IMG/VR virus record: IMGVR_UViG_3300010213_000001
Coordinates: 32,001-96,000 of that record
From: a virus
Lineage: Duplodnaviria; Heunggongvirae; Uroviricota; Caudoviricetes
Reading direction: 5' to 3' (one strand)
DNA: 64,000 bases
The notes beneath the pieces were generated by a model. It searched no databases. It was not told the DNA's origin and worked only from the letters and a program-made list of their open reading frames with translations. This document shows, in pieces, positions 15,101 through 30,419 of the stretch; within the stretch, counting starts at the first letter, position 1, and each line of letters opens with the position of its first letter. Made by a program: the position numbers and the translations under genes.

Positions 15101-18062
15101 TTTTAAGTATGAATCTTTTGTTATGTTCCCTTTAAAATTTAATTCATATATTGGAGTGTCCACTGAAGACACTATAACATTAGGAGAGTTCTCAAATAAT
15201 ACAAGTGGTGATAGATTAGGAGAGAATCTACATGTAGAGCCTAACTACGGAGGAGATGATAATCCATCATTTGGAGTTATTAGACCTGTAGCTATGCTAG
15301 TTAATCTATATAGAGATTTAGGATTTGACTTAGGCACTAATGTGGATGATTTAAACAGAATAAAATCAGATGTAAATTTAGCAGCTATATCATATACTCC
15401 TGTAACTAAAAGATTATACTGGATTAAACCTGAAGATGAGTTGGATTCAGTAGATATATTAGATGTTAGTGAAGATGGTAAAATAGTTGCGTACCAAGGA
15501 GACAACTTTGTTAGCTTAGGAATTAGACAATTATATAATAATATTTATGGTGTAAATGACGAAGCTCCAGAAAATTCATTTAGATCAGGACGTGTTGGAT
15601 ATAGTTTAACTCTTGTTAACGATAGTATTTACAATCCCTTATTCAGAACTATAGAAATACCTAATCAAGCTGAGCCAGCTTTAAACTTTTTCCCGAATCT
15701 TCTAACTACATCTCCTAATAACCTAGGTAATAAATATGCACAAGGTAACCAGTGGAGAGACTATGAAGAACTTGAATCTACTGCATTCAATTTTGGGGGA
15801 GTAAAAACTTATACAGATAGAAACTATATTACTTTAGTTGACAGAGTTCCATTCTTAAATACAGAATTTTCTACAAGAGTTATTTATAGTGAGTTACACA
15901 TTAACTCTGCAATTGAGAACGGATATAGAAACTTTCTACCTTCAGCATATAGAGACTATAGTCAAGAAATGGGAGCTATAACAGCTATTAGATCATTTCC
16001 TAATAATAACAACTATTTAGTCTTAGTTCAAGAAAATGGTATAGGGTTGGTTCCTGTTGTACAAAGAGATTTATTAGCTGATACAAGTTCCTCCACTAGT
16101 GGTAGTCTTTATTTTGATGAAGCAGGTATATTAGGAGATATAGATAAAGTTCAGCAGTTAACAAAACAATATGGATCTAAATGGTTGAACTCTATAGTAA
16201 CTACTAATACATCAATATATGGTGTAGATATAGAAAATACTAAGGTATGGAAGTTAAATCCAGGGTTGGAATTAATTTCTGATTATAAGATTCAGAGCTG
16301 GTTGAGATTAATAAAACCAACATATAGTTACAAATCTGTCAATCTATTAAATAGATATATTTATGGATACTATAACTTAGGTTCTAATTATGTTCATTTT
16401 AACTATAAAGATGTAGTATGCAGTAGTAGTGTGCAGGATGATACTCCATACGCTTGGCAAGTAGACTACTCTATTTTGGAAGAATATAATAATGGAATCT
16501 TAACAGGGCAGGAAAAACCTAATGTGATTAGTGATCCAGATTACATAGAGCCAGCCGTACTTGAGCAGATAGAGAGTCCTTGTCCCATACAAGGAGAACC
16601 TTCTTTTCCTAATAATATAGATATATATGTTGTGTGGGATACTACATCTTTTAATCCTACTTTAAAGGCTACTTTACAACAGAATGTTATAGGTCCTTGG
16701 ATACAAAACTTTAGAACTCAGTATCCACAGTGGATTGGAAATTTCCAGCAAATAGATGCGCCTAATACAACTGAAGGGGAGCAATGGTTAAGTTATGTAA
16801 ATCTTATACCAAACACTGCTACAAAAGTTGTACTAATTTGTATGATTGATGAAGCACATACTAGTTATCATAACCAAAGCGTAACGAGATGGGATAGTAT
16901 AGCAGATGCTAATAATCTATTTAATGTAGCATTATCTACAAGTGGCACAACCCAGCCAACAGCTCAATATATAACAGATTATAATAATTTTATAACCATA
17001 TACAATACCAGATTTGATTATTTTAAAGGTATGGTATATGCTATACCTAGTGCACCTAGTGTATTACCTAGATTATTTGCTAACCTCCAATTACATGCTT
17101 ATTGTGCAATAGAAGGTACAACTGTAAGTCCTGGAGAATTTGTACCATCACAGCAAGGGGACATAAGTATTATACAATCAGAGAACTTATATTCTACTAT
17201 TGGACCAGGTTTGAAGAACTTTGGATGGCAAGAGCAACATAACTTTAGTGGTCAAGCTAGTGATTTAACTCTTGAACAATTTACTGAAGATATCAATCCT
17301 TTAATAATAGAATCTCCTACAGAAGGGTTTAGTGGTTGGAAGCCTAGGGTTTCCTCTGCTACTTGTACTCCATTATATAAATTGATTTGTGTGGAGACTA
17401 CACCAGTACTAACTCAAAATATCAGCTATAGTGAAACTTTAGGTTACTGGAATAGCTTTTGGGGATTTTTTCCATCTAAAACATTTAATCTATATAATAA
17501 ACATTATTCTTTTAATGGGTCATTAACTAGTCCTATAAATGAAATATGGGAACACAATACTAATAATACAAGATGTAACTTCTATGGATACCAAGATGAA
17601 TTTGTATTTGAATTTGTTATTACTTCAGAGATACAATTCCAAAAGATATTTACAAACTTCATATTATTGTGTAATGAAGTACCTCCTATATTTATAGAAT
17701 ATACTACTGATAATGAACCTACTATAGATGATGTTAAACCTAACCCTATAAAAGAGCCTAGAGTGCAGACTATTTATCCAAGATTTAGACAAAGATATTA
17801 TAGTTCTTACAATCCGTCTAATCCTAATCCAGTTTTAAATAGAGTTATAAAATATAATGCTAAGTATAAAGAAAATCACATGTATATTCAAATAGATGAT
17901 AACAATAGAGATACTAAAGGTAGGGTACATCCTTCTCCTTTTACTAAGCTAAATAATGCTAAAATAAGAGACAAATACCTTAAAGTAAGATTTAGATATA
18001 AAGGGGATGAATATTCTATTATACAGGCTGTAATTACAGCTTATCAAATATCTTTTAGTTAA
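12180..18062 (+). CDS. Tail muzzle / tail stabilisation protein (P22 gp10-like beta-propeller) with inserted domains
   Basis: 1960 aa. Motifs include N-terminal NTF-x-KGLNLD, LQNIKGN, GEVGSFPSPDY, QPSYDGSINIIFTD-x-x-NPIRLVN, YRDYS-x-x-x-GAIT, YGSKW, and C-terminal K-x-RDKYLKVRFRYKG, all recognisable in crAss-like muzzle proteins. Confidence 0.75.
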   Translation: MSTANNTFNKGLNLDTPNYQYQPDTLSYCRNCDYLTGEGNEAILQNIKGNTKIDGLKENYFPVAIKSYGGVAYIVSAEVINNTFTGRGEVGSFPSPDYSNLSLVNGRTLRGTIDYENPRYSPLKNYLDESLEPDDPIVLNEELLIYGTSASVYKDFNTSLFNFTEFTEFDIEIQPSYDGSINIIFTDNYNPIRLVNTRFTALSNNTVEIRDRIGQADTNLYNKYNFNNTLNLFQNSTKIVNLDLDSIGFGGELNSGIYRYYIKYATQDGNVTNIIAESFNVNIFHGTTLVDARGGDDNLLRNTRKSVRLKLSNLDMSYKMLKVQYSYSYGDNNIETEFYEIEDSFNITNNSITIQHTGRESIFPISRQELGIDYVTAFTGKSLTQVNNKLYIANIKSKQYNLVAFEEFANNIKVGHKQKKVEVPFTSAIVDDNSIYSSLLTTKIANTNDSLSIGYKNGYHNPFNTYYFVGYTPGEKYLYSCRFILDDGTTSQCFPLRGIDNWENDKYITYGNETLNEANDYFSTNNGENLKGLYRFPQRTSNNLFAQRNGDTSYSIIDSDTNIEREVDSIGDGSLTTDESAFIFSDSITDINTQTLEDYYFNELNGGSSIIVTEETLENYENPNYENPNSGDFFFDYSIFDINDCISNPDCELTQEVIDCINDINCTVSLLRHNCEFISTTAGTAFPAGQLYEISGVTCSGDQFNNTTSTITLTYQNQVDSYGNPLGTTYDYQVISTKEAQANILAVTFELPNTPYPEGTIGVQFMRSIENSKDSIGQGYIVDTLPVPSIEIYGKEERGNRYIDYISDFGDGGMKLVPSIDYVLESPAVWDRRGLGPNRKKIREDEGGNTGLQPVLFNNKGWKATEPYEERTKFAFISNDLLSNPVELSSTLIGGNFKLKEISKIGLFTGVRTSNRSSGRNIGVEGFSVYKTITVESSTERLINCELDFVLADVEGRTPNGFSSRCQFSGTHNDFKYESFVMFPLKFNSYIGVSTEDTITLGEFSNNTSGDRLGENLHVEPNYGGDDNPSFGVIRPVAMLVNLYRDLGFDLGTNVDDLNRIKSDVNLAAISYTPVTKRLYWIKPEDELDSVDILDVSEDGKIVAYQGDNFVSLGIRQLYNNIYGVNDEAPENSFRSGRVGYSLTLVNDSIYNPLFRTIEIPNQAEPALNFFPNLLTTSPNNLGNKYAQGNQWRDYEELESTAFNFGGVKTYTDRNYITLVDRVPFLNTEFSTRVIYSELHINSAIENGYRNFLPSAYRDYSQEMGAITAIRSFPNNNNYLVLVQENGIGLVPVVQRDLLADTSSSTSGSLYFDEAGILGDIDKVQQLTKQYGSKWLNSIVTTNTSIYGVDIENTKVWKLNPGLELISDYKIQSWLRLIKPTYSYKSVNLLNRYIYGYYNLGSNYVHFNYKDVVCSSSVQDDTPYAWQVDYSILEEYNNGILTGQEKPNVISDPDYIEPAVLEQIESPCPIQGEPSFPNNIDIYVVWDTTSFNPTLKATLQQNVIGPWIQNFRTQYPQWIGNFQQIDAPNTTEGEQWLSYVNLIPNTATKVVLICMIDEAHTSYHNQSVTRWDSIADANNLFNVALSTSGTTQPTAQYITDYNNFITIYNTRFDYFKGMVYAIPSAPSVLPRLFANLQLHAYCAIEGTTVSPGEFVPSQQGDISIIQSENLYSTIGPGLKNFGWQEQHNFSGQASDLTLEQFTEDINPLIIESPTEGFSGWKPRVSSATCTPLYKLICVETTPVLTQNISYSETLGYWNSFWGFFPSKTFNLYNKHYSFNGSLTSPINEIWEHNTNNTRCNFYGYQDEFVFEFVITSEIQFQKIFTNFILLCNEVPPIFIEYTTDNEPTIDDVKPNPIKEPRVQTIYPRFRQRYYSSYNPSNPNPVLNRVIKYNAKYKENHMYIQIDDNNRDTKGRVHPSPFTKLNNAKIRDKYLKVRFRYKGDEYSIIQAVITAYQISFS
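14033..14067 (+). repeat. 15-bp in-frame tandem duplication (NYENP x2)
   Basis: AAACTATGAAAATCC repeated twice plus a partial third copy. Confidence 0.8.
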
Positions 18063-19030: not shown

Positions 19031-20872
19031 ATGAAAAAATGTAATACTGGATGTAATATCCAACAAGATGGTATTGATACAGATGTCTTGCATCTTATTC
19101 CAGAAGAGGTTTATGACTTAATGAAGAAGAGAGCTAGAATTAGATCGTCTAAACCATATAATGATAAACACAAAGAATGGTTAAAAAAGCAAGCTAATAA
19201 GAAAGGAGTTTCTTTAAGAGCATACTTAATAGGACTATCTAATGAAGTAGAACCTCATTTGATTGCTATAGAGAAAATGCAGCAAGGAGGCGAATTAGAT
19301 GATGATCTGTTAATGATAAGTGAAAACATTAATAATAGATTAAATCAAATTGCTGCTATGTATAATCAGCAAGTGCCAGACGCTACTTCCGCTAATACAA
19401 TAAACAAACAATATAAAAAAGGCGGTAAGATGAAGCCTATGTATCAAAGAGGCTCAGTTCTAGAACAATCTAGAGAAATGTTAGCAAAGAAAATAGATAG
19501 TCAAAGAGCAAGATTGTATGATGATAATATAGCTGCTAAAGAAGGATATCAATCTACAGGATTTATAAAAGTAGATAATCCATCAGAGATGTTGGAAGCT
19601 GACGCATGTTATATTGTAGAAAAAGGTAAAAAACCTAGAAAAGTAGATTGTTCTGTAAATGGAGCTGTTAAAGGAAATGCCCTAGAAACTAAGGATGGTG
19701 TTACTTATTATATGAGAGAGCAGACCAAGTATAGTACTAATAAAACAGATGGTAAATCTACTATAACAGATTGGCAATCTCCCGAGATATCTAATAGTAG
19801 TTCAAGAGGTGGAGAAGGTGACCCTGCTCCAGAAGAAGGTAAAGGAAAAGGCAAAGATAGTAGTAATAGAAGAGGATACAAGTGGGCTGTAGAAGGTGGA
19901 TGTGGATATTGTACAGGGAAAAATAAGCAGAATATGATAGTAAAAGATATAACAGATTTTGTCTCTTCTAATTCTAATATTAGTGCCTTTGTTGGAAGAC
20001 ATCTAAATGCTTTAGTTAGTAACTACAAGAAAGCTGGAGGTAAGGATACTGATACTATAGCTATTCCAATGGGAGATAATATGAAATCCTTTCAGCAAGC
20101 AGCAGAGATGGGCTGTTTTTGTGCTGTCTCAGGTAATATAAAGGTGGATACTCCTCCAACAGAAACTATAGAAGCTGATAGACAAGTAGATGTTATTAGT
20201 GAAGAAGAACCAAAACCTATTAAGGATAACATAAATAGAGCTTATCATTACTATGCTAAGATAGAGATTCCATATCCACAGGAAATTAATAATGGTAAAG
20301 GATTTAAAACTGATGTGGTATACTTCTCTGTAGTACCACAAATGAGTGGAAACAGTGTTCAGTCGTTAACCTTATCAAATTTAAGTGTTGGAGCTAATAC
20401 TTTACCTAAGGGACAAAGTTTAAGTGGAGGTATTAAAGAAGGAAATGTAATAAAAGGGAATGCTAATCTAGGCACTGTACGTTTACCTATGCCATCAAGT
20501 GATCAAATAGAATCTGTGTTTGGAAAACTTGAAAAAGGAATAAGAAAAGAGAATACAGCAGGATTAGATAATTACCTTAGAGAGCAAATAACTCAAAACT
20601 TAAATTCTAATTGGCTTGATAAAATAAAAGGATTTATAGAAGATAAAATAAGTAAATCGAAAGATGCTAATTTAGAAAGTCAAGAATTTGAAACTGGAGC
20701 TGATGGTAACTTGCAGAATAGAGCTACTCAACCTAAACTTCAACAAGGAGGACAGTATCCAATAGGTAAGGAGTTCCTTATAAGAAATAAGGATATGTTT
20801 AAAGAAAGAAACATTAAAGAATATATAAAGAATTACTCATCTAGAATAAGCCCAACTTATTTTAATCAATAA
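19031..20872 (+). CDS. Putative internal virion protein with several xxGG motifs and Cys clusters
   Basis: 613-aa ORF with MQQGG, YKKGG and LQQGG motifs plus CGYC and CFC. Confidence 0.55.
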   Translation: MKKCNTGCNIQQDGIDTDVLHLIPEEVYDLMKKRARIRSSKPYNDKHKEWLKKQANKKGVSLRAYLIGLSNEVEPHLIAIEKMQQGGELDDDLLMISENINNRLNQIAAMYNQQVPDATSANTINKQYKKGGKMKPMYQRGSVLEQSREMLAKKIDSQRARLYDDNIAAKEGYQSTGFIKVDNPSEMLEADACYIVEKGKKPRKVDCSVNGAVKGNALETKDGVTYYMREQTKYSTNKTDGKSTITDWQSPEISNSSSRGGEGDPAPEEGKGKGKDSSNRRGYKWAVEGGCGYCTGKNKQNMIVKDITDFVSSNSNISAFVGRHLNALVSNYKKAGGKDTDTIAIPMGDNMKSFQQAAEMGCFCAVSGNIKVDTPPTETIEADRQVDVISEEEPKPIKDNINRAYHYYAKIEIPYPQEINNGKGFKTDVVYFSVVPQMSGNSVQSLTLSNLSVGANTLPKGQSLSGGIKEGNVIKGNANLGTVRLPMPSSDQIESVFGKLEKGIRKENTAGLDNYLREQITQNLNSNWLDKIKGFIEDKISKSKDANLESQEFETGADGNLQNRATQPKLQQGGQYPIGKEFLIRNKDMFKERNIKEYIKNYSSRISPTYFNQ

Positions 20873-20877
20873 TAACA

Positions 20878-21201
20878 ATGAAATATAATATCTATAAGAA
20901 ATCTAATGTAATCCCTACTGGAGTTCTTCACAAAGAAAAAAATGACTTACCAGCATCTTTTAAACTAGGGACGAAAGGCATACCAATAGTATCTTGTGAT
21001 ATTAATACTAAAGTATGTGCTAAAGCTGCTGAAGTAGAGAAAGAAGAGTTAATAATCCATAGTGAATTATCTAAGGAGGTTGAGAGACTAGCTACATTGT
21101 ATTTATCTTCTAAAGATCCAAGAATAGCTCTAGATTTGGGAAAGCTTATGTACAATCAAATTAATAATAACACACAGGATTATAGTGGTAAATACAAATA
21201 G
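20878..21201 (+). CDS. Small conserved crAss-like virion-module protein
   Basis: The pattern NVIP-x-G-x-LH...TKGIPIV...AEVE-x-x-E-x-I recalls a domain of crAss-like cargo-region proteins. Confidence 0.5.
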   Translation: MKYNIYKKSNVIPTGVLHKEKNDLPASFKLGTKGIPIVSCDINTKVCAKAAEVEKEELIIHSELSKEVERLATLYLSSKDPRIALDLGKLMYNQINNNTQDYSGKYK

Positions 21202-21209
21202 ATTATAAG

Positions 21210-21824
21210 ATGAAGAATAAAAGTAGATTAACAGCTGTAACTATAGGAGATAAGGAATATACATGTATTATTCCTCAATCTTCTAAAGAAGGATTATTAA
21301 ACTATAATAAAGGAGAATTAGGAGAATATGGAATGCTATTCTCTTTTCCTTCTAGAGACGTTACAATAACATCACATGGAATGAAATTCCCAATTAATAT
21401 AGTTATTATACAAGATTACAAGATAAAAGATATTATATATTTAACTCCTAATAATATACTTGAGACAGAAGGACAATATGCTGTAGAGTTTGATTCTATA
21501 GCAGATATTTCTTCTATTAAGAAGGGAGACACAGCCAAAATACTAAATTCAATGGGAGATACAGTAAAAGTAAGAGTACGTTTACCAAAACACGAAGCAG
21601 GAGGTCAGCCTCACTATCAAGATACATTCTTACTAGATGAGAAAGGACACGTACAAATGATATTACATGGTAAAGAGAGAATTTTTAGTAGAGAGCATAC
21701 TAACAAAATTATGAATTTAGTAAGCAAAAAGCCTACAATTGAGAATCTCATGAAGCTTGGACAATTAGTAGCTAACATAGTAAAGATACATTCTGAGCAA
21801 AAACAAGAGTATGTTGAAGAATAA
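21210..21824 (+). CDS. DUF192-like protein with C-terminal domain paralogous to the upstream gene
   Basis: GL...GMLF-x-F...M-x-FPI-x-I-x-x-I...Y-x-VE is the DUF192 pattern, followed by an HEAGG linker and a second small domain. Confidence 0.6.
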   Translation: MKNKSRLTAVTIGDKEYTCIIPQSSKEGLLNYNKGELGEYGMLFSFPSRDVTITSHGMKFPINIVIIQDYKIKDIIYLTPNNILETEGQYAVEFDSIADISSIKKGDTAKILNSMGDTVKVRVRLPKHEAGGQPHYQDTFLLDEKGHVQMILHGKERIFSREHTNKIMNLVSKKPTIENLMKLGQLVANIVKIHSEQKQEYVEE

Positions 21825-21887: not shown

Positions 21888-22316
21888 ATGAAACTAGTAG
21901 CAACAAATCCTAATAAATTTAAAGCTAATGCTTACGCAGCATATGACTTTATAAACAACAGAAGAAGTGTTCCTTTATATCAAGCTGGAGGAGTGGCTCC
22001 AGATCCTGAAATGGCTCCTGATGCACAACCAGCTCAACCAGATGTTCAAACTTTAATGCAAGAGTTTAGTCAGACTCAAGATCCAAATATTGCAATTCAG
22101 ATATTGCAGATGTTGGCTCAACCTGAAACAGCAGCTCAAGCAGTAAGTATGCTAATGCAGGCAATGCAATCTCAAACTACAGAGGCAGCTCCAGCTGAGC
22201 CAGGTACTGAAGTACCAGCAGCTGCTAATGGAATGAGTTTAGATGATTTAAAGTTAGAGAATTCTCTATTTGATAGAATATATAAAGAAGTAACAGGAAA
22301 AACTTTAAAGAAATAA
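21888..22316 (+). CDS. Small Q/A/P-rich putative internal virion protein
   Basis: 142 aa, YQAGG motif, low-complexity helical core. Confidence 0.55.
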   Translation: MKLVATNPNKFKANAYAAYDFINNRRSVPLYQAGGVAPDPEMAPDAQPAQPDVQTLMQEFSQTQDPNIAIQILQMLAQPETAAQAVSMLMQAMQSQTTEAAPAEPGTEVPAAANGMSLDDLKLENSLFDRIYKEVTGKTLKK

Positions 22317-24116: not shown

Positions 24117-25931
24117 ATGAAAAAAACTAATAAAAGAATCCCTAAACATGAAAAGGGAGCAGTAATAAAACAAAAGCTAGTTGATTGGTTGAATAAGAAT
24201 GGCTCGTCTATATCTAGAATAGAGGCTGCTGAATTAAGAAAAGGTATTGAGGATCTAAATCCCGATATGTTTTATTCTATAAATGAAGACAAAGAAGGCT
24301 ACTTAACTTTTAAACAAGATGATTCTGGAAAATGGAATGAGTCTTCTGATTTTGGAGCTGGTATTTATAAAAAAGATGGTAAGTTATCAAGGAACAGAAG
24401 TGGATTTCTTCAAACTCTGTCAGGCAACAGAAAGTATGCAGCCTATGGAGGTAGAGAAAACCCTAGAAGAATAAAAGATGCTTTAATTAAGGCTAAGGAG
24501 CTTAATATATTACGCAACATTAAGGATGAAGAAGGTCAATCAAAGAGTACTGATACTACAGGCAATTCTAATGCTGCTACTAGTATAGATGATTTAATAG
24601 GAACTACTCCAACTAATGTTCTAAATAAAAACGGTATTGATTACGTTACTGTTGATGGTCAAGAGATACCTGTTAAGATAGGACCAGATGGTAAAATACA
24701 AAGTATAATCGCAATAGAGGATGTTGCTATTGATGCTGTAGAAGGAACAGGACAAGATGCAAAATTTAAAGATGGGATAGATCCATATACTACAGGAGTA
24801 GACTTATTTGATGAGTCTAGCAATAATCAAGACGCCTCCACATCAGACACTATACCTACTGATGAAGAAGGGAATATTGTATTTACAGACGGTAGACTAT
24901 TTCAAAAGTATCTTATAGATAAAGCTAAGGCAGCTAACATGACCGTTACAGGTAGAATGTTAGGAGTAAAGACTGCAGTTGATACCCACAATGGAGTTCC
25001 TATAGATGGTAAAGTTGGAGATTTAACTATGGCATTAGCAACTAAGTTAGGAGTTGCTGATAAGTGGAAAGGTAATATGTTTAAGAATAAAAAAGTAACT
25101 GTTACACAAGATTCTCCTCAGAATGTTGATGAAGATATTAGTGATGATCCAATTAAAGATAAAGATACTAAATTAAAAGAGATAGAAGATGAAGTAAAAA
25201 GAATAATAGATCCTACTAGCGCACAATATGGATATGTTAAAAGACTACAAGAGTTATTTACTGAGTATGCTAATTTAACTGGTAAGTTTTATCCCAACGC
25301 TGACACACTTCTTAAGATGACTGAACAAGCTAGTAAGACTGAAGATTCTCCAACTTTAGAAGCCAAGATAAGAGATAATAACATGGATCGTGTAAATCAT
25401 GAAGGCAGGATACAATATGGTAATACAGATGATCTTAGATATAAGTTCAGACCAGACATATATACTGGAAGTCAAGGTACTAGCAATACATCCACATCAT
25501 CTACTTCAGTAGACCTTAATCAAGGAAAGCAGATAACTAAAGGTAGTGAATTATTTCCCTTTTTTGGTATAAAGTCAGGAGAATATTCTAAAGAAGATAA
25601 ACAAAAAGACATAGATACACTAAATAAGAAAATAGAAGGATTATCTAGATTTAAAGACAGTAATCCTAAAGCATATGAACAAAGTCTAACTAAACTTCTA
25701 AAAGAATATAAGGAACTAACTGGGCAAGACCATCCTGTAGCATCTATGAAAACTGGAGGTGTTGTAAGTAAGTATGAGAATGGAGGCAGTTTAGACCTAT
25801 CTTATTTAGATGATCTATTAAGTTTCTCAACTAGTTATGAATCTGGCAGCCTACAAGATTACTTTAATAAAAAGAGTGCAAGAAAGGAGGAGTCACAACC
25901 AGTAAATTTTACCAAGAAGGGGGCTCTCTAA
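24117..25931 (+). CDS. Internal virion (cargo) protein; N-terminal part of a probable frameshift fusion
   Basis: 604 aa, Cys-free. Motifs HEKGA, MKTGG and YENGG. A peptidoglycan-binding-like 'Q-x-x-L...IDGKVGDLT' segment. An internal repeat (LQELFTEYANLTG / LTKLLKEYKELTG). Confidence 0.65.
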   Translation: MKKTNKRIPKHEKGAVIKQKLVDWLNKNGSSISRIEAAELRKGIEDLNPDMFYSINEDKEGYLTFKQDDSGKWNESSDFGAGIYKKDGKLSRNRSGFLQTLSGNRKYAAYGGRENPRRIKDALIKAKELNILRNIKDEEGQSKSTDTTGNSNAATSIDDLIGTTPTNVLNKNGIDYVTVDGQEIPVKIGPDGKIQSIIAIEDVAIDAVEGTGQDAKFKDGIDPYTTGVDLFDESSNNQDASTSDTIPTDEEGNIVFTDGRLFQKYLIDKAKAANMTVTGRMLGVKTAVDTHNGVPIDGKVGDLTMALATKLGVADKWKGNMFKNKKVTVTQDSPQNVDEDISDDPIKDKDTKLKEIEDEVKRIIDPTSAQYGYVKRLQELFTEYANLTGKFYPNADTLLKMTEQASKTEDSPTLEAKIRDNNMDRVNHEGRIQYGNTDDLRYKFRPDIYTGSQGTSNTSTSSTSVDLNQGKQITKGSELFPFFGIKSGEYSKEDKQKDIDTLNKKIEGLSRFKDSNPKAYEQSLTKLLKEYKELTGQDHPVASMKTGGVVSKYENGGSLDLSYLDDLLSFSTSYESGSLQDYFNKKSARKEESQPVNFTKKGAL

Positions 25932-25947
25932 AGCTCCCGAATACTTC
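25885..25947 (+). promoter_or_regulatory. Putative -1 programmed ribosomal frameshift signal
   Basis: AGGAGG at 25885-25890, slippery heptamer A_AAT_TTT at 25904-25910 in the frame of ORF 24117, and hairpin GGGGGCT-CTCTAA-AGCTCCC at 25919-25938. The -1 frame is open into ORF 25958. Confidence 0.75.
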
Positions 25948-25957
25948 CATTAAATAT

Positions 25958-27520
25958 GTGAAGTATGATAAAGGTGGTAAGGTGCTAAGAGGTAGTCCAT
26001 ATTATGATACTGTATTAGACAAAATAATAAATCCAAGTGATAAAGTTTATAATCCTGAATCATATAGTGCTATTCCAGTAAGTGAAATGGAGAAGTTCAA
26101 AGCTAATAGAGACAATAGAATGCAGCCTAAGGATATTCTCAATCCAAATAATGATAAAACTAAGTTATTAGGAAATGATAATAAAGAGAGAGAACTTGAT
26201 ATCTTATCACCTAATAAAACTTCTGATTTGGAAAATGTAGGTGGTTTATCGCCTAATGATAATACTAGAGAATTGGATAGAAAGGGCTCAAGTTTTGAGA
26301 ATACCGGCAACAGACAAAATCAAGATATAGCTAACAAAGTTAATTATGGAACTGGGTTAGACCATACTACTGCTCAATATGTAACTGCCATAGGAACATC
26401 AGCTGCCAATTTTGGATATGTCCCACAAAGAAAGAATGTAAAAAGAAATGTATTTATTAGTGATATAGAAAAGAAAGCTTACAATTCTTTGCAAAATAAG
26501 ATGAATCAGCAATTTGCTGATCAAAGATCTAGGACACCTAAGACTAGTGATGCTACATTGAATACTCTATCTCAACAAGCGACAACAGAGAATGCATATC
26601 AACAAAATCTAAGCTTAGCACAGTCAGAAGCTCAAGATATTAATAGACAGAAAGATTTACAATATGGACAACGTATGCAAGCTGATGCACAAAGAGTAGC
26701 AGAATTAAATCAAAGCATTGCTATTGATAATGCAGAAGCACTAGCTAAAGATAAAGCTAAAGATATGTTTAGAACTACTGTAGCTCAGACTACTATGGAT
26801 TATGCAGATACTAAGAAACTTGAAAAGGAACAACAAAGACAATTAGCTGAGAATTTATTTATTAGTAAACAGAACCAAGAAATTGAAAAACAAATATCTG
26901 AATTATCAAACAAGAAAGCTAAATTATTAGGACCTGCTACACAAAGAGATAGAATTAACTATGCTTTGTCTATAGGTCAAATAGACGATGCTCAAGTACA
27001 AATAGCAGCTAAGAATGCCATAGATCAATTTAATACATTATATCCAGAAGATAAAGTATCCGACTTCGCATCTCTGGATTCAGCTTTAACACAAAAAATA
27101 AATGATTTAGATACTGAGATGGGGAATCTTAGAGAAGCTGCTAATAATAATGCTTTAGAGATAAGAGCTAAGGGTGCGTTAGTTCAAGGATATCAGTATG
27201 CTCCAACAAGTAACCAATACGGACATTTGAATAATTCATCAACAGGACAGCAATTCAATCCTAATAATCCAATTGGAAAACAATTGTTTAAGAAAGGTGG
27301 TAAGACTAAATCAGATTATCAATTTGAAGCTTATAAACATGAATTGAGAAAAGAAGCAGCAAGAAGTAAGGAAGAAATGAAATATGATAATGCTGCTAAA
27401 ATAGAACAGTTAAAAATTTCAATGAAAATAGCAGAGAATAATATAAGAAATTTTACTAAATCAATAGAAGCTTACAATAAAGATATACATAATATATATA
27501 ATAAGGGCAAGAATAAGTAA
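25958..27520 (+). CDS. Coiled-coil cargo/ejection protein; probably made as the C-terminal part of a ~1134-aa frameshift fusion
   Basis: 520 aa, Q/A/N-rich, helical and Cys-free. It has only a GTG start, and its frame is open upstream to 25871. Confidence 0.65.
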   Translation: MKYDKGGKVLRGSPYYDTVLDKIINPSDKVYNPESYSAIPVSEMEKFKANRDNRMQPKDILNPNNDKTKLLGNDNKERELDILSPNKTSDLENVGGLSPNDNTRELDRKGSSFENTGNRQNQDIANKVNYGTGLDHTTAQYVTAIGTSAANFGYVPQRKNVKRNVFISDIEKKAYNSLQNKMNQQFADQRSRTPKTSDATLNTLSQQATTENAYQQNLSLAQSEAQDINRQKDLQYGQRMQADAQRVAELNQSIAIDNAEALAKDKAKDMFRTTVAQTTMDYADTKKLEKEQQRQLAENLFISKQNQEIEKQISELSNKKAKLLGPATQRDRINYALSIGQIDDAQVQIAAKNAIDQFNTLYPEDKVSDFASLDSALTQKINDLDTEMGNLREAANNNALEIRAKGALVQGYQYAPTSNQYGHLNNSSTGQQFNPNNPIGKQLFKKGGKTKSDYQFEAYKHELRKEAARSKEEMKYDNAAKIEQLKISMKIAENNIRNFTKSIEAYNKDIHNIYNKGKNK

Positions 27521-28547: not shown

Positions 28548-30419
28548 ATGGACAATACATTTGAAGATATAAGTTTGGAACAATATGATGAAATAGACGC
28601 AACATCTATTTATCAAGAAGGTGGAACTTTTGAAGTACCATCTTTCCAGCCTGTTGTACGGCAGTTTAACCCTGTACAAATGAGGTTTAATGCTCAAGAA
28701 TCAGATTTCATAAAGAGTCCTGGTATACCTCAAATACCAGATATAGACTATGATGGGTTAGATAAACTACAAGGTAAGGGGCATACAAATGATGTAAATA
28801 ATTACATAAACTCTAAAAAGCAAGCACAATACGAGCTGCAAAGTTTAGTTACCAAGTATGGATACGAAGCCACTAAGCTGCCTATATTTGGAGAGATGAT
28901 AAATAGAATGAAAGTTGATCCCGCAGAGCTTAATGAATTAATAGTTAGAAAAGAGATGTCTAAGGAGTTTGCTGATATTAATAAAGCTAATGGAGGGGAA
29001 AACGAATGGGTAACTGATGCTAATGGTAGTATACTAGTACAAAACAGTGAAGGAAATTATGAATATGTAGATCCCTATGTATTAATGACGTCCAAAGATA
29101 AAGTTCCTATAACAAGTTCAGATGCAATACAAAGAAATGATAGAGATAATAAACTAACTAGAAATCAAGATATTATGCCTGCTGTTGCCCAAGTTTGGGG
29201 CGGGGATAAAGCTCTAGATCATCTTAATTCACAATTAGATAAGATAGGATCTACAGAGCGTCAAAGAGCTAGTGAAGCCATAGCTGGATTAGGTAATTTA
29301 AATGGTTCAAATGTATTTGGTAAAGCTGGATCAGATAGAACACTATCATCAAATGAAAAGCAAGTAATAGATTTGTATCAGTCATTAATGAGAACCATGG
29401 ATACAGCAGCTAAAAATTACTTTAGAAATAAGGCTATACAATCTATAGGTAAAGTTGATTTAGATAGAGAAACATATGAGAGAGCAGTTAATGAAGCCAC
29501 TGGCAAGCTAGTATTATCTTACGTTAGTAAAGTTCTAGACACTAAAGACATATCTAAAAATACAGTTGATATTGATGCTACTCTAACTAAAGGAATTAAA
29601 GGCGGAGCAGGTTGGGAAATGCCAGATGAAGCTGAGTGGCTAATGTCTACAGCTCAAGGATACTATATGCGAGAAGTAGATGGTAAACTAGTTGTAGATG
29701 ATGGTTGGGATAAATCTAATATTTATAATTATGATCCTGAAACTGGTCAAATGATGCAGACAGACGCTTATTTTTATACTGATTTAGGACAAGAAGAAAA
29801 AGAAAGAGTTCAGCAGCCTATTGGTACTTCATTAGAAGGAACAAGAGTACAATTTAATTCTGGAATACCAGTAACATTAAAAGGCGGTATTCAAGCTGGA
29901 GCTAATCCTCAATTGATAGGATTTATAGATAAAGATGGTAGACATCAACTTAAAGTAAAGACAGCTGGAGTTTTCAAAGCTAGTGAACTAGAAGGTCAGA
30001 CTATAATGGTTTATAATAAAGAAAAGAGAAAGTTCGAGAGTCAACCTATTGTACAAGATGGAGAGATAACTGATGCGGCAAAGCAATTATTAAAGGCTAA
30101 AGAAGTAGTAGGAGCAGGAATGTTTTTTGGAAATAGTAGAGATGAGGGTATTGAGACCCTTGTAGCAAATGGATTCAGTAAAGAAGAGGCGGAAGCAATA
30201 GTAGCTCCCACTGATAAATGGGGACCAAGTGATGAAGGTATGTATGTGATACCATTTATGGATGACTATACAACAACTCAAGCACATCAGAGAAATCATG
30301 GAAAGGTAGCAAATAGAAAACAATTGTCATTGGAGAATAGAATAAAAGTTAGTGGTGCTCAAGAAGCACAGCAAGCTGAAAATCAAATTAGAGAAATGAG
30401 TATCCGTCTAGGATTATAA
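28548..30419 (+). CDS. Internal virion / ejection protein
   Basis: 623 aa, Cys-free, with an N-terminal YQEGG motif. It directly precedes the giant ejection genes. Confidence 0.6.
   Translation: MDNTFEDISLEQYDEIDATSIYQEGGTFEVPSFQPVVRQFNPVQMRFNAQESDFIKSPGIPQIPDIDYDGLDKLQGKGHTNDVNNYINSKKQAQYELQSLVTKYGYEATKLPIFGEMINRMKVDPAELNELIVRKEMSKEFADINKANGGENEWVTDANGSILVQNSEGNYEYVDPYVLMTSKDKVPITSSDAIQRNDRDNKLTRNQDIMPAVAQVWGGDKALDHLNSQLDKIGSTERQRASEAIAGLGNLNGSNVFGKAGSDRTLSSNEKQVIDLYQSLMRTMDTAAKNYFRNKAIQSIGKVDLDRETYERAVNEATGKLVLSYVSKVLDTKDISKNTVDIDATLTKGIKGGAGWEMPDEAEWLMSTAQGYYMREVDGKLVVDDGWDKSNIYNYDPETGQMMQTDAYFYTDLGQEEKERVQQPIGTSLEGTRVQFNSGIPVTLKGGIQAGANPQLIGFIDKDGRHQLKVKTAGVFKASELEGQTIMVYNKEKRKFESQPIVQDGEITDAAKQLLKAKEVVGAGMFFGNSRDEGIETLVANGFSKEEAEAIVAPTDKWGPSDEGMYVIPFMDDYTTTQAHQRNHGKVANRKQLSLENRIKVSGAQEAQQAENQIREMSIRLGL

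Follow-up and report, generated by a model that had tools for sequence, protein, structure and literature searches.

The question raised by this locus is whether two overlapping open reading frames (ORFs) in a phage genome are two genes, or one gene whose halves are joined by ribosomal frameshifting. The window analysed is a stretch of 64,000 nucleotides (nt) of viral DNA, positions 32001-96000 of one 244,700-base contig (IMG/VR record IMGVR_UViG_3300010213_000001; 30% GC), and is part of a crAss-like jumbo phage genome. An initial annotation, made from the sequence alone, had described a −1 programmed frameshift cassette fusing two cargo ORFs. A programmed −1 frameshift inside one split gene, to which we assign a probability of roughly 0.8, is supported by homologues in which both halves are fused, by a split sister homologue, by an excess of RNA structure and by a second candidate cassette in the genome. 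The features of the junction, in window coordinates, are the following:

24117-25931, plus strand: ORF1, the frame-0 product of 604 amino acids (aa), N-terminal half of a probable cargo protein (ORF, and homology to the N-halves of the homologues P0004 and P0005)
25746-25802, plus strand: [YFM]xxGG motif pair in frame 0, repeated by the −1 frame at 25877-25933
25868-25874, plus strand: T_AAA_AAG with an A5 run (25869-73) at the start of the frame overlap, a rival slip or indel position (sequence and crossover scan)
25871-27520, plus strand: −1 frame, running for 536 codons past the slip; the gene call is a 520-aa GTG ORF (ORF2) from 25958; conserved and largely helical C-half
25885-25890, plus strand: AGGAGG, a Shine-Dalgarno (SD)-like word 13 nt before the heptamer, formed by Gly-Gly codons of the −1 frame; putative stimulator
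25904-25910, plus strand: slippery heptamer A_AAT_TTT, in frame, Asn-Phe codons (GTA AAT TTT)
25919-25938, plus strand: hairpin 1, 7 base pairs (bp) including one G-U; it begins 8 nt past the heptamer and holds the frame-0 stop TAA (25929-31) in its loop (folding)
25941-25966, plus strand: hairpin 2, 10 bp with one bulge, pairing the GTG start region including the first G of GTG (folding)
25958-25960, plus strand: GTG, a possible independent start of weak context, paired in hairpin 2

Most of what the initial annotation had claimed for these elements was confirmed, including the in-frame heptamer read from the ORF1 codons, the distance of AGGAGG, the position of hairpin 1 around the stop, and a −1 frame that reads F-Y-Q-E-G-G-S-L and stays open into ORF2, at whose beginning GTG is the only start, the first ATG being at residue 44. 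The three sequence elements of a dnaX/IS911-type signal (heptamer, SD-like word at 13 nt and 3' structure) are thus all present. The proposed extension of hairpin 1 by GAAG/CTTC did not hold, as the CTTC (25944-47) instead pairs with the GAAG at 25960-63 in hairpin 2, with a pair probability of about 1.0.

A profile search with ORF2 across 1.84 billion representatives returned four matching proteins, namely the phage's own protein, P0002, P0004 and P0005. P0004 (1100 aa) and P0005 (1213 aa) carry both halves in one protein; ORF1 is 35% identical to the N-half of the former (E 2e-82) and 32% identical to that of the latter (E 9e-71), and ORF2 is 33-35% identical to their C-halves. Because two relatives encode both halves as one protein, the 1134-aa slip product (598 + 536) is, judged from these alignments, the full-length form of the family, and the 604-aa product is its N-half. 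P0002 (518 aa, 40% identity) begins with a methionine at the same motif as the GTG ORF and is apparently a sister to this phage, split at the same break, so that the split is kept at the protein level in one of three homologues. A quartet of the C-halves groups the two split forms against the two fused forms with 100% bootstrap (464 columns, unrooted; 34 sites versus 8 and 7 for the other groupings), which fits one old split. The comparison with homologues that the initial annotation had proposed therefore yielded two fused forms and one split form. Its claim of a shift that joins two ORFs is supported, but a single cargo gene that has been split describes them better than two fused cargo ORFs do.

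Upstream of the GTG, FYQEGG of the −1 frame aligns with FFKQGG of P0004 and P0005, and the first of the two −1-frame GG motifs lies upstream of the GTG as well. The two motifs are separated by 3-4 residues in the fused relatives and by 13 here, and the extra nine or so codons, absent from the fused relatives, are the codons that form the hairpins, which therefore lie in an insertion. At the same junction, P0004 (residues ~586-604) and P0005 (~651-669) both keep K-E-G-x-x-S-Q-G-F-F-K-Q-G-G, in the same register as the SD-like word and heptamer here.

The RNA structure is the decisive signal. The 65 nt after the slip site fold at −20.4 kcal/mol (z-score −4.15), a stability reached by none of 200 shuffles and equalled by just 4 of 3000 windows drawn at random from the structural region. 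In a coding-only null, in which the −1-frame protein was held fixed and synonymous codons were redrawn, none of 3000 recodings reached this value (best −14.3 kcal/mol), and hairpin 1 was matched by a single one of 3000. Synonymous usage in the 22 codons after the slip is more atypical than in any of 3753 late-gene windows, and over the 12 overlapping codons that precede the heptamer, frame 0 scores 7.6 bits better than the −1 frame in codon usage (+4.9 versus −2.7). A putative closing stem of 2-3 bp, adjoining the heptamer directly, was seen when an IS911-like three-way junction was tested, with a probability of 0.39-0.54. A pseudoknot was considered and dropped, with loop matches of only 4-5 nt; no intrinsic terminator was called at the junction, and an Rfam search gave no family, only three chance hits (E at least 0.64). 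Within hairpin 2, a frame-0 ATG-TGA (25956-25961) overlaps the GTG start.

The same signal design appears to be used twice by this phage. When 257 gene junctions were scanned for an overlap without an ATG inside 25 codons, four were found; two of these overlap in −1, each with an in-frame heptamer and an upstream GGAGG. The other one lies outside the window:

G000:C1 179009-179040 (L002 ~1420-1535), site at ~179018, minus strand: second candidate −1 cassette, with GGAGG, A_AAA_AAG directly before TAG, and a long stem-loop

Its stem-loop has z-scores of −2.8 and −2.7, with none of 1500 recodings as stable. About 70 codons without a start come next, and codon usage is normal in codons 24-72 of these; none of 1689 control −1 windows is open for as long. 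This cassette would fuse a 297-aa membrane protein to a frame of about 230 aa whose first ATG is some 70 codons in, and no homologue of its proteins was found among GenBank phages or viral contigs.

The heptamer and the SD-like word are, by themselves, weak evidence, because the K-F-Y and Gly-Gly codons of the protein itself also yield them. Over the 75,866 codon positions of the whole genome there are 303 in-frame heptamers; GGAGG or AGGAG precedes six of them, the −1 frame stays open for 100 codons or more at nine, and two combine these features. The remaining seven of the nine have neither an SD-like word nor structure, and five of the seven lie at three inspected junctions, each with a start nearby.

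A number of observations weigh against a programmed shift at this site, and several concern the signal itself. The coding-only null produces the heptamer in 1984 of 4000 draws (50%) and the heptamer with the SD-like word in 282 (7%), and in the structural ORFs that were examined, 12 of 20 GG motifs have GGAGG in their codons. A_AAU_UUU is less shifty in E. coli than A_AAA_AAG. It is not mentioned in the part of PMC5009743 that was covered. In favour of a programmed shift, the 13-nt spacing of AGGAGG falls inside the range of 9-14 nt given there for SD stimulators of −1 shifting. Ribosomes of Bacteroidia largely disregard SDs. The SD-like word may be a leftover of the Gly-Gly codons with little effect, and it may be idle, because the anti-SD is sequestered in Flavobacterium, where prfB shifts at about 7% whether or not its SD is present (PMC10798248, covered in part). 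Other points come from the homologues. P0002 is a protein record only, from a 5.6-kb contig, where a contig edge or its own start is possible. A word-indexed protein search found no ORF1-like partner upstream of P0002 and returned, for ORF1 and for alignment A2, only this phage's protein; this search is insensitive, because P0004 and P0005 were missed too. No DNA of the relatives was confirmed in viral, metagenome or genome contigs or among GenBank phages. In a crossover scan, homology resolves the switch of frame only to 25872-25910, with P0005 preferring an earlier switch (58 versus 46) and P0004 tied (55 versus 55). Before the heptamer, moreover, the −1 frame repeats ORF1's own motif pair and resembles the cargo motif, and it was probably coding at one time. 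We read this repeat and the Gly-Gly AGGAGG as the history of the signal, a reading that also keeps an indel and an upstream slip as minor rivals.

The last of these points bears on the two rivals that place the change of frame further upstream. An assembly error or recent mutation would mean that one base is missing, for example from the A5 run, that the true gene is a single ORF, and that the 'SD' and 'heptamer' are simply Gly-Gly and Lys-Phe-Tyr codons. The motif repeat read by the −1 frame from 25871, the P0005 alignment and the frequency of heptamer and SD among recodings are all as such an error would have it, but it is a very improbable explanation of RNA structure beyond coding demand, of codon usage that prefers frame 0 up to the heptamer, of a sister protein split at the same place, and of an independent second cassette. 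A programmed shift at T_AAA_AAG (25868-74), by an A_AAG-type slip, is held to be just as improbable. The −1 frame opens exactly there, an early crossover scores equal or higher, and A_AAG is a known minimal −1 site according to the part of PMC5009743 covered; however, this site has no SD upstream, the hairpins begin at a distance of 44 nt, and codon usage over the next 12 codons favours frame 0.

Gene fission with translational coupling is unlikely, if less remote than either of these. Under this explanation the two proteins are separate, and hairpin 2 is melted by ribosomes that terminate in hairpin 1, which frees the otherwise paired GTG at 25958. Such a start would put YDKGG at the N-terminus, as in neighbouring cargo-type proteins, and would agree with the methionine of P0002; its context, at the 12th percentile of the ATG starts taken as true, is weak yet not impossible, and this too counts against frameshifting. 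Coupling nevertheless leaves unexplained why a GC-rich hairpin stands 8 nt past an in-frame heptamer, and why FYQEGG/FFKQGG is conserved upstream of the GTG. Of 172 long ORFs, 156 start with ATG, most of the others with an ATG soon after, and the second cassette has its start-less codons with normal usage. Transcriptional slippage was rejected on base runs of only 4-5 nt.

Under a programmed −1 frameshift, ribosomes would translate frame 0 as far as A_AAU_UUU, where the two tandem hairpins, the likely main stimulator, are predicted to make them pause. A fraction would slip back by one base, tRNA-Asn moving from AAU to AAA and tRNA-Phe from UUU to UUU, and would make the 1134-aa protein that relatives encode in a single frame, whereas unslipped ribosomes would stop six codons on and release the 604-aa N-half. 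The slip itself, the isoform ratio, packaging and ejection are what we infer. It is conceivable, though doubtful, that the tandem GG motifs of crAss-like cargo proteins are ready-made frameshift parts, in which Gly-Gly codons supply the SD and a G-rich stem arm and Lys/Gly-Phe the slip site, and that one lineage added a hairpin insert, giving a cargo gene with two isoforms and thereby control over how much N-half is made per full-length ejection protein. The codons for K-E-G…Q-G-F-F-K in P0004 and P0005 could contain an SD and a U-rich slip site and, in a bolder form of this idea, the fused relatives could make the same isoforms by the opposite logic, with the −1 frame stopping at once, as in dnaX.

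The design resembles E. coli dnaX and IS911 of the IS3 family in combining an SD-like word, 9-14 nt before the slip site, with an X_XXY_YYZ heptamer and one or more 3' stem-loops, and in short and long products with a common N-terminus (PMC5009743, part covered). It differs in its pair of adjacent hairpins, whose closing stem is only weak, and in a probable host lineage that sequesters the anti-SD. The heptamer here is A_AAU_UUU, whereas that of dnaX and IS911 is A_AAA_AAG, and the shift gives the long form rather than, as in dnaX, the short one. The tail-chaperone gene G/GT of phage lambda and T7 gene 10 are likewise phage morphogenesis genes with two nested products and a −1 slip (PMC5009743, same part); unlike these, the present gene codes for neither a tail chaperone nor a capsid protein, sits in a crAss-like cargo block, and has relatives in which a single frame covers the long form. 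Citrobacter rodentium tssM1 (PMC4256274, covered in part) and H. neapolitanus csoS2 (PMC5009743) also derive two length variants from one assembly-protein gene by a change of frame, and for tssM1 both forms and their ratio matter. However, tssM1 relies on transcriptional slippage at an A11 run, and because the longest runs here are of 4-5 bases and RNA structure is present, ribosomal slippage is indicated. The shift would fall in mid-gene, and the −1 frame encodes a C-half that is conserved, is predicted to be helical and matches no enzyme in Pfam or PHROG; what is likely new is a shift of the dnaX/IS911 kind that restores a conserved C-half and adds no enzyme.

Neither half has a PHROG, Pfam family or PDB sequence match. 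An AlphaFold model of the C-half contains long helices, one of 124 residues, and disordered linkers, at low confidence (pLDDT, the predicted local distance difference test, 58.6; pTM, the predicted template modelling score, 0.28), and no transmembrane helix is predicted. On gene order, motif and helical build, the product is probably an injected (cargo) virion protein. In these respects it resembles crAss001 cargo protein 1, gp45 (PF25725; PMC10172136, covered in part), which follows a muzzle-like gene, precedes a gene of about 600 aa and giant genes, and has [YF]xxGG motifs and a helical C-half. Unlike that likeness of position and build, sequence and profile comparison gave no significant match, with an hhalign probability of 0.4% to gp45 and 0.1% to the 1554-aa ORF of MT835470.1, and no PF25725 match. 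The ESM Atlas points to crAss_CARG1 (scores 0.84-0.85), as a lead only. A comparable cassette was sought in the MT835470.1 ORF and in gp45 and found in neither; gp45 has one heptamer but no usable slip site, its −1 frame closing after six codons. According to the part of PMC10172136 covered, gp45 and gp46 are expected to form an envelope channel, and gp45 segments occur in capsid and tail. Speculatively, the full-length form here might become part of such a helical channel, with the short form providing extra copies of the N-domain.

The word 'frameshift' is not mentioned in the covered part of PMC10172136, one Crassvirales preprint mentions frameshifting only in general terms in the part covered, and no paper on frameshifting in crAss cargo genes was found in the literature searched, which lacks most subscription papers. 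If the shift is real, the composition of the protein set that a crAss-like phage injects would be determined by recoding, which until now has been described in such a role for tail chaperones and capsid extensions, and gene callers would miss the actual 1134-aa protein. The fused and split relatives would be a natural before-and-after series for a frameshift signal arising from coding motifs, and the cassette a compact test of whether an internal SD stimulates −1 shifting on Bacteroidota ribosomes with a sequestered anti-SD.

[YFLM]xxGG motifs occur 18 times in 30,995 aa of the structural arm versus 3 times in 45,465 aa elsewhere. They are found in the window at 19031-21824, 21888-22316, 24117-27520 and 28548-30419, and at G000:C1 18040-21174, often near termini; they may be a packaging or cleavage tag, on which a literature search found no paper.

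The phage assignment rests on a crassvirus-type major capsid protein (Pfam PF23898, 72.4 bits against a cutoff of 27), 20-28% identical to capsids of crAss-like phages, and on a capsid-rings-muzzle-cargo-giant gene order syntenic with GenBank MT835470.1; the match to the ring protein PF24228 is below the Pfam cutoff. Four neighbouring genes match their MT835470.1 counterparts (BLASTP, E 1e-41 to 6e-6), and the order is the same in both, namely a muzzle-like gene, three small homologous genes, the cargo slot, a gene of about 600 aa and giant genes; the cargo slot is filled by ORF1 and ORF2 here and by a single 1554-aa ORF in MT835470.1. The statement of the initial annotation that gene starts in this genome lack SDs is borne out, in that an SD-like word precedes only 10 of 244 ORFs versus 12% of coding 17-mers, starts being A-rich and SD words avoided. 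Together with the phage group, these SD-poor, A-rich starts point to a Bacteroidota host. At 244.7 kb, the contig is about twice the size of the crAss-like records among the matches listed, and only two tRNA calls fall on G000:C1.

Three further loci were seen in passing. At 19031-21201 in the window, ORFs of 613 and 107 aa occupy the slot of one 568-aa ORF of MT835470.1, the 107-aa ORF matching the C-terminus of the latter (E 7e-13); this is another gene fission, with an ATG. At G000:C1 ~16500-16546 a +1 overlap spans 53 nt, and the first ATG comes 30 codons past the stop; this may be an intron or a +1 shift. Finally, the 1044-aa ORF at G000:C1 18040-21174 contains six GG motifs and may be a packaged topoisomerase, its central stretch resembling, to judge by eye, the motif of DNA topoisomerase IB.

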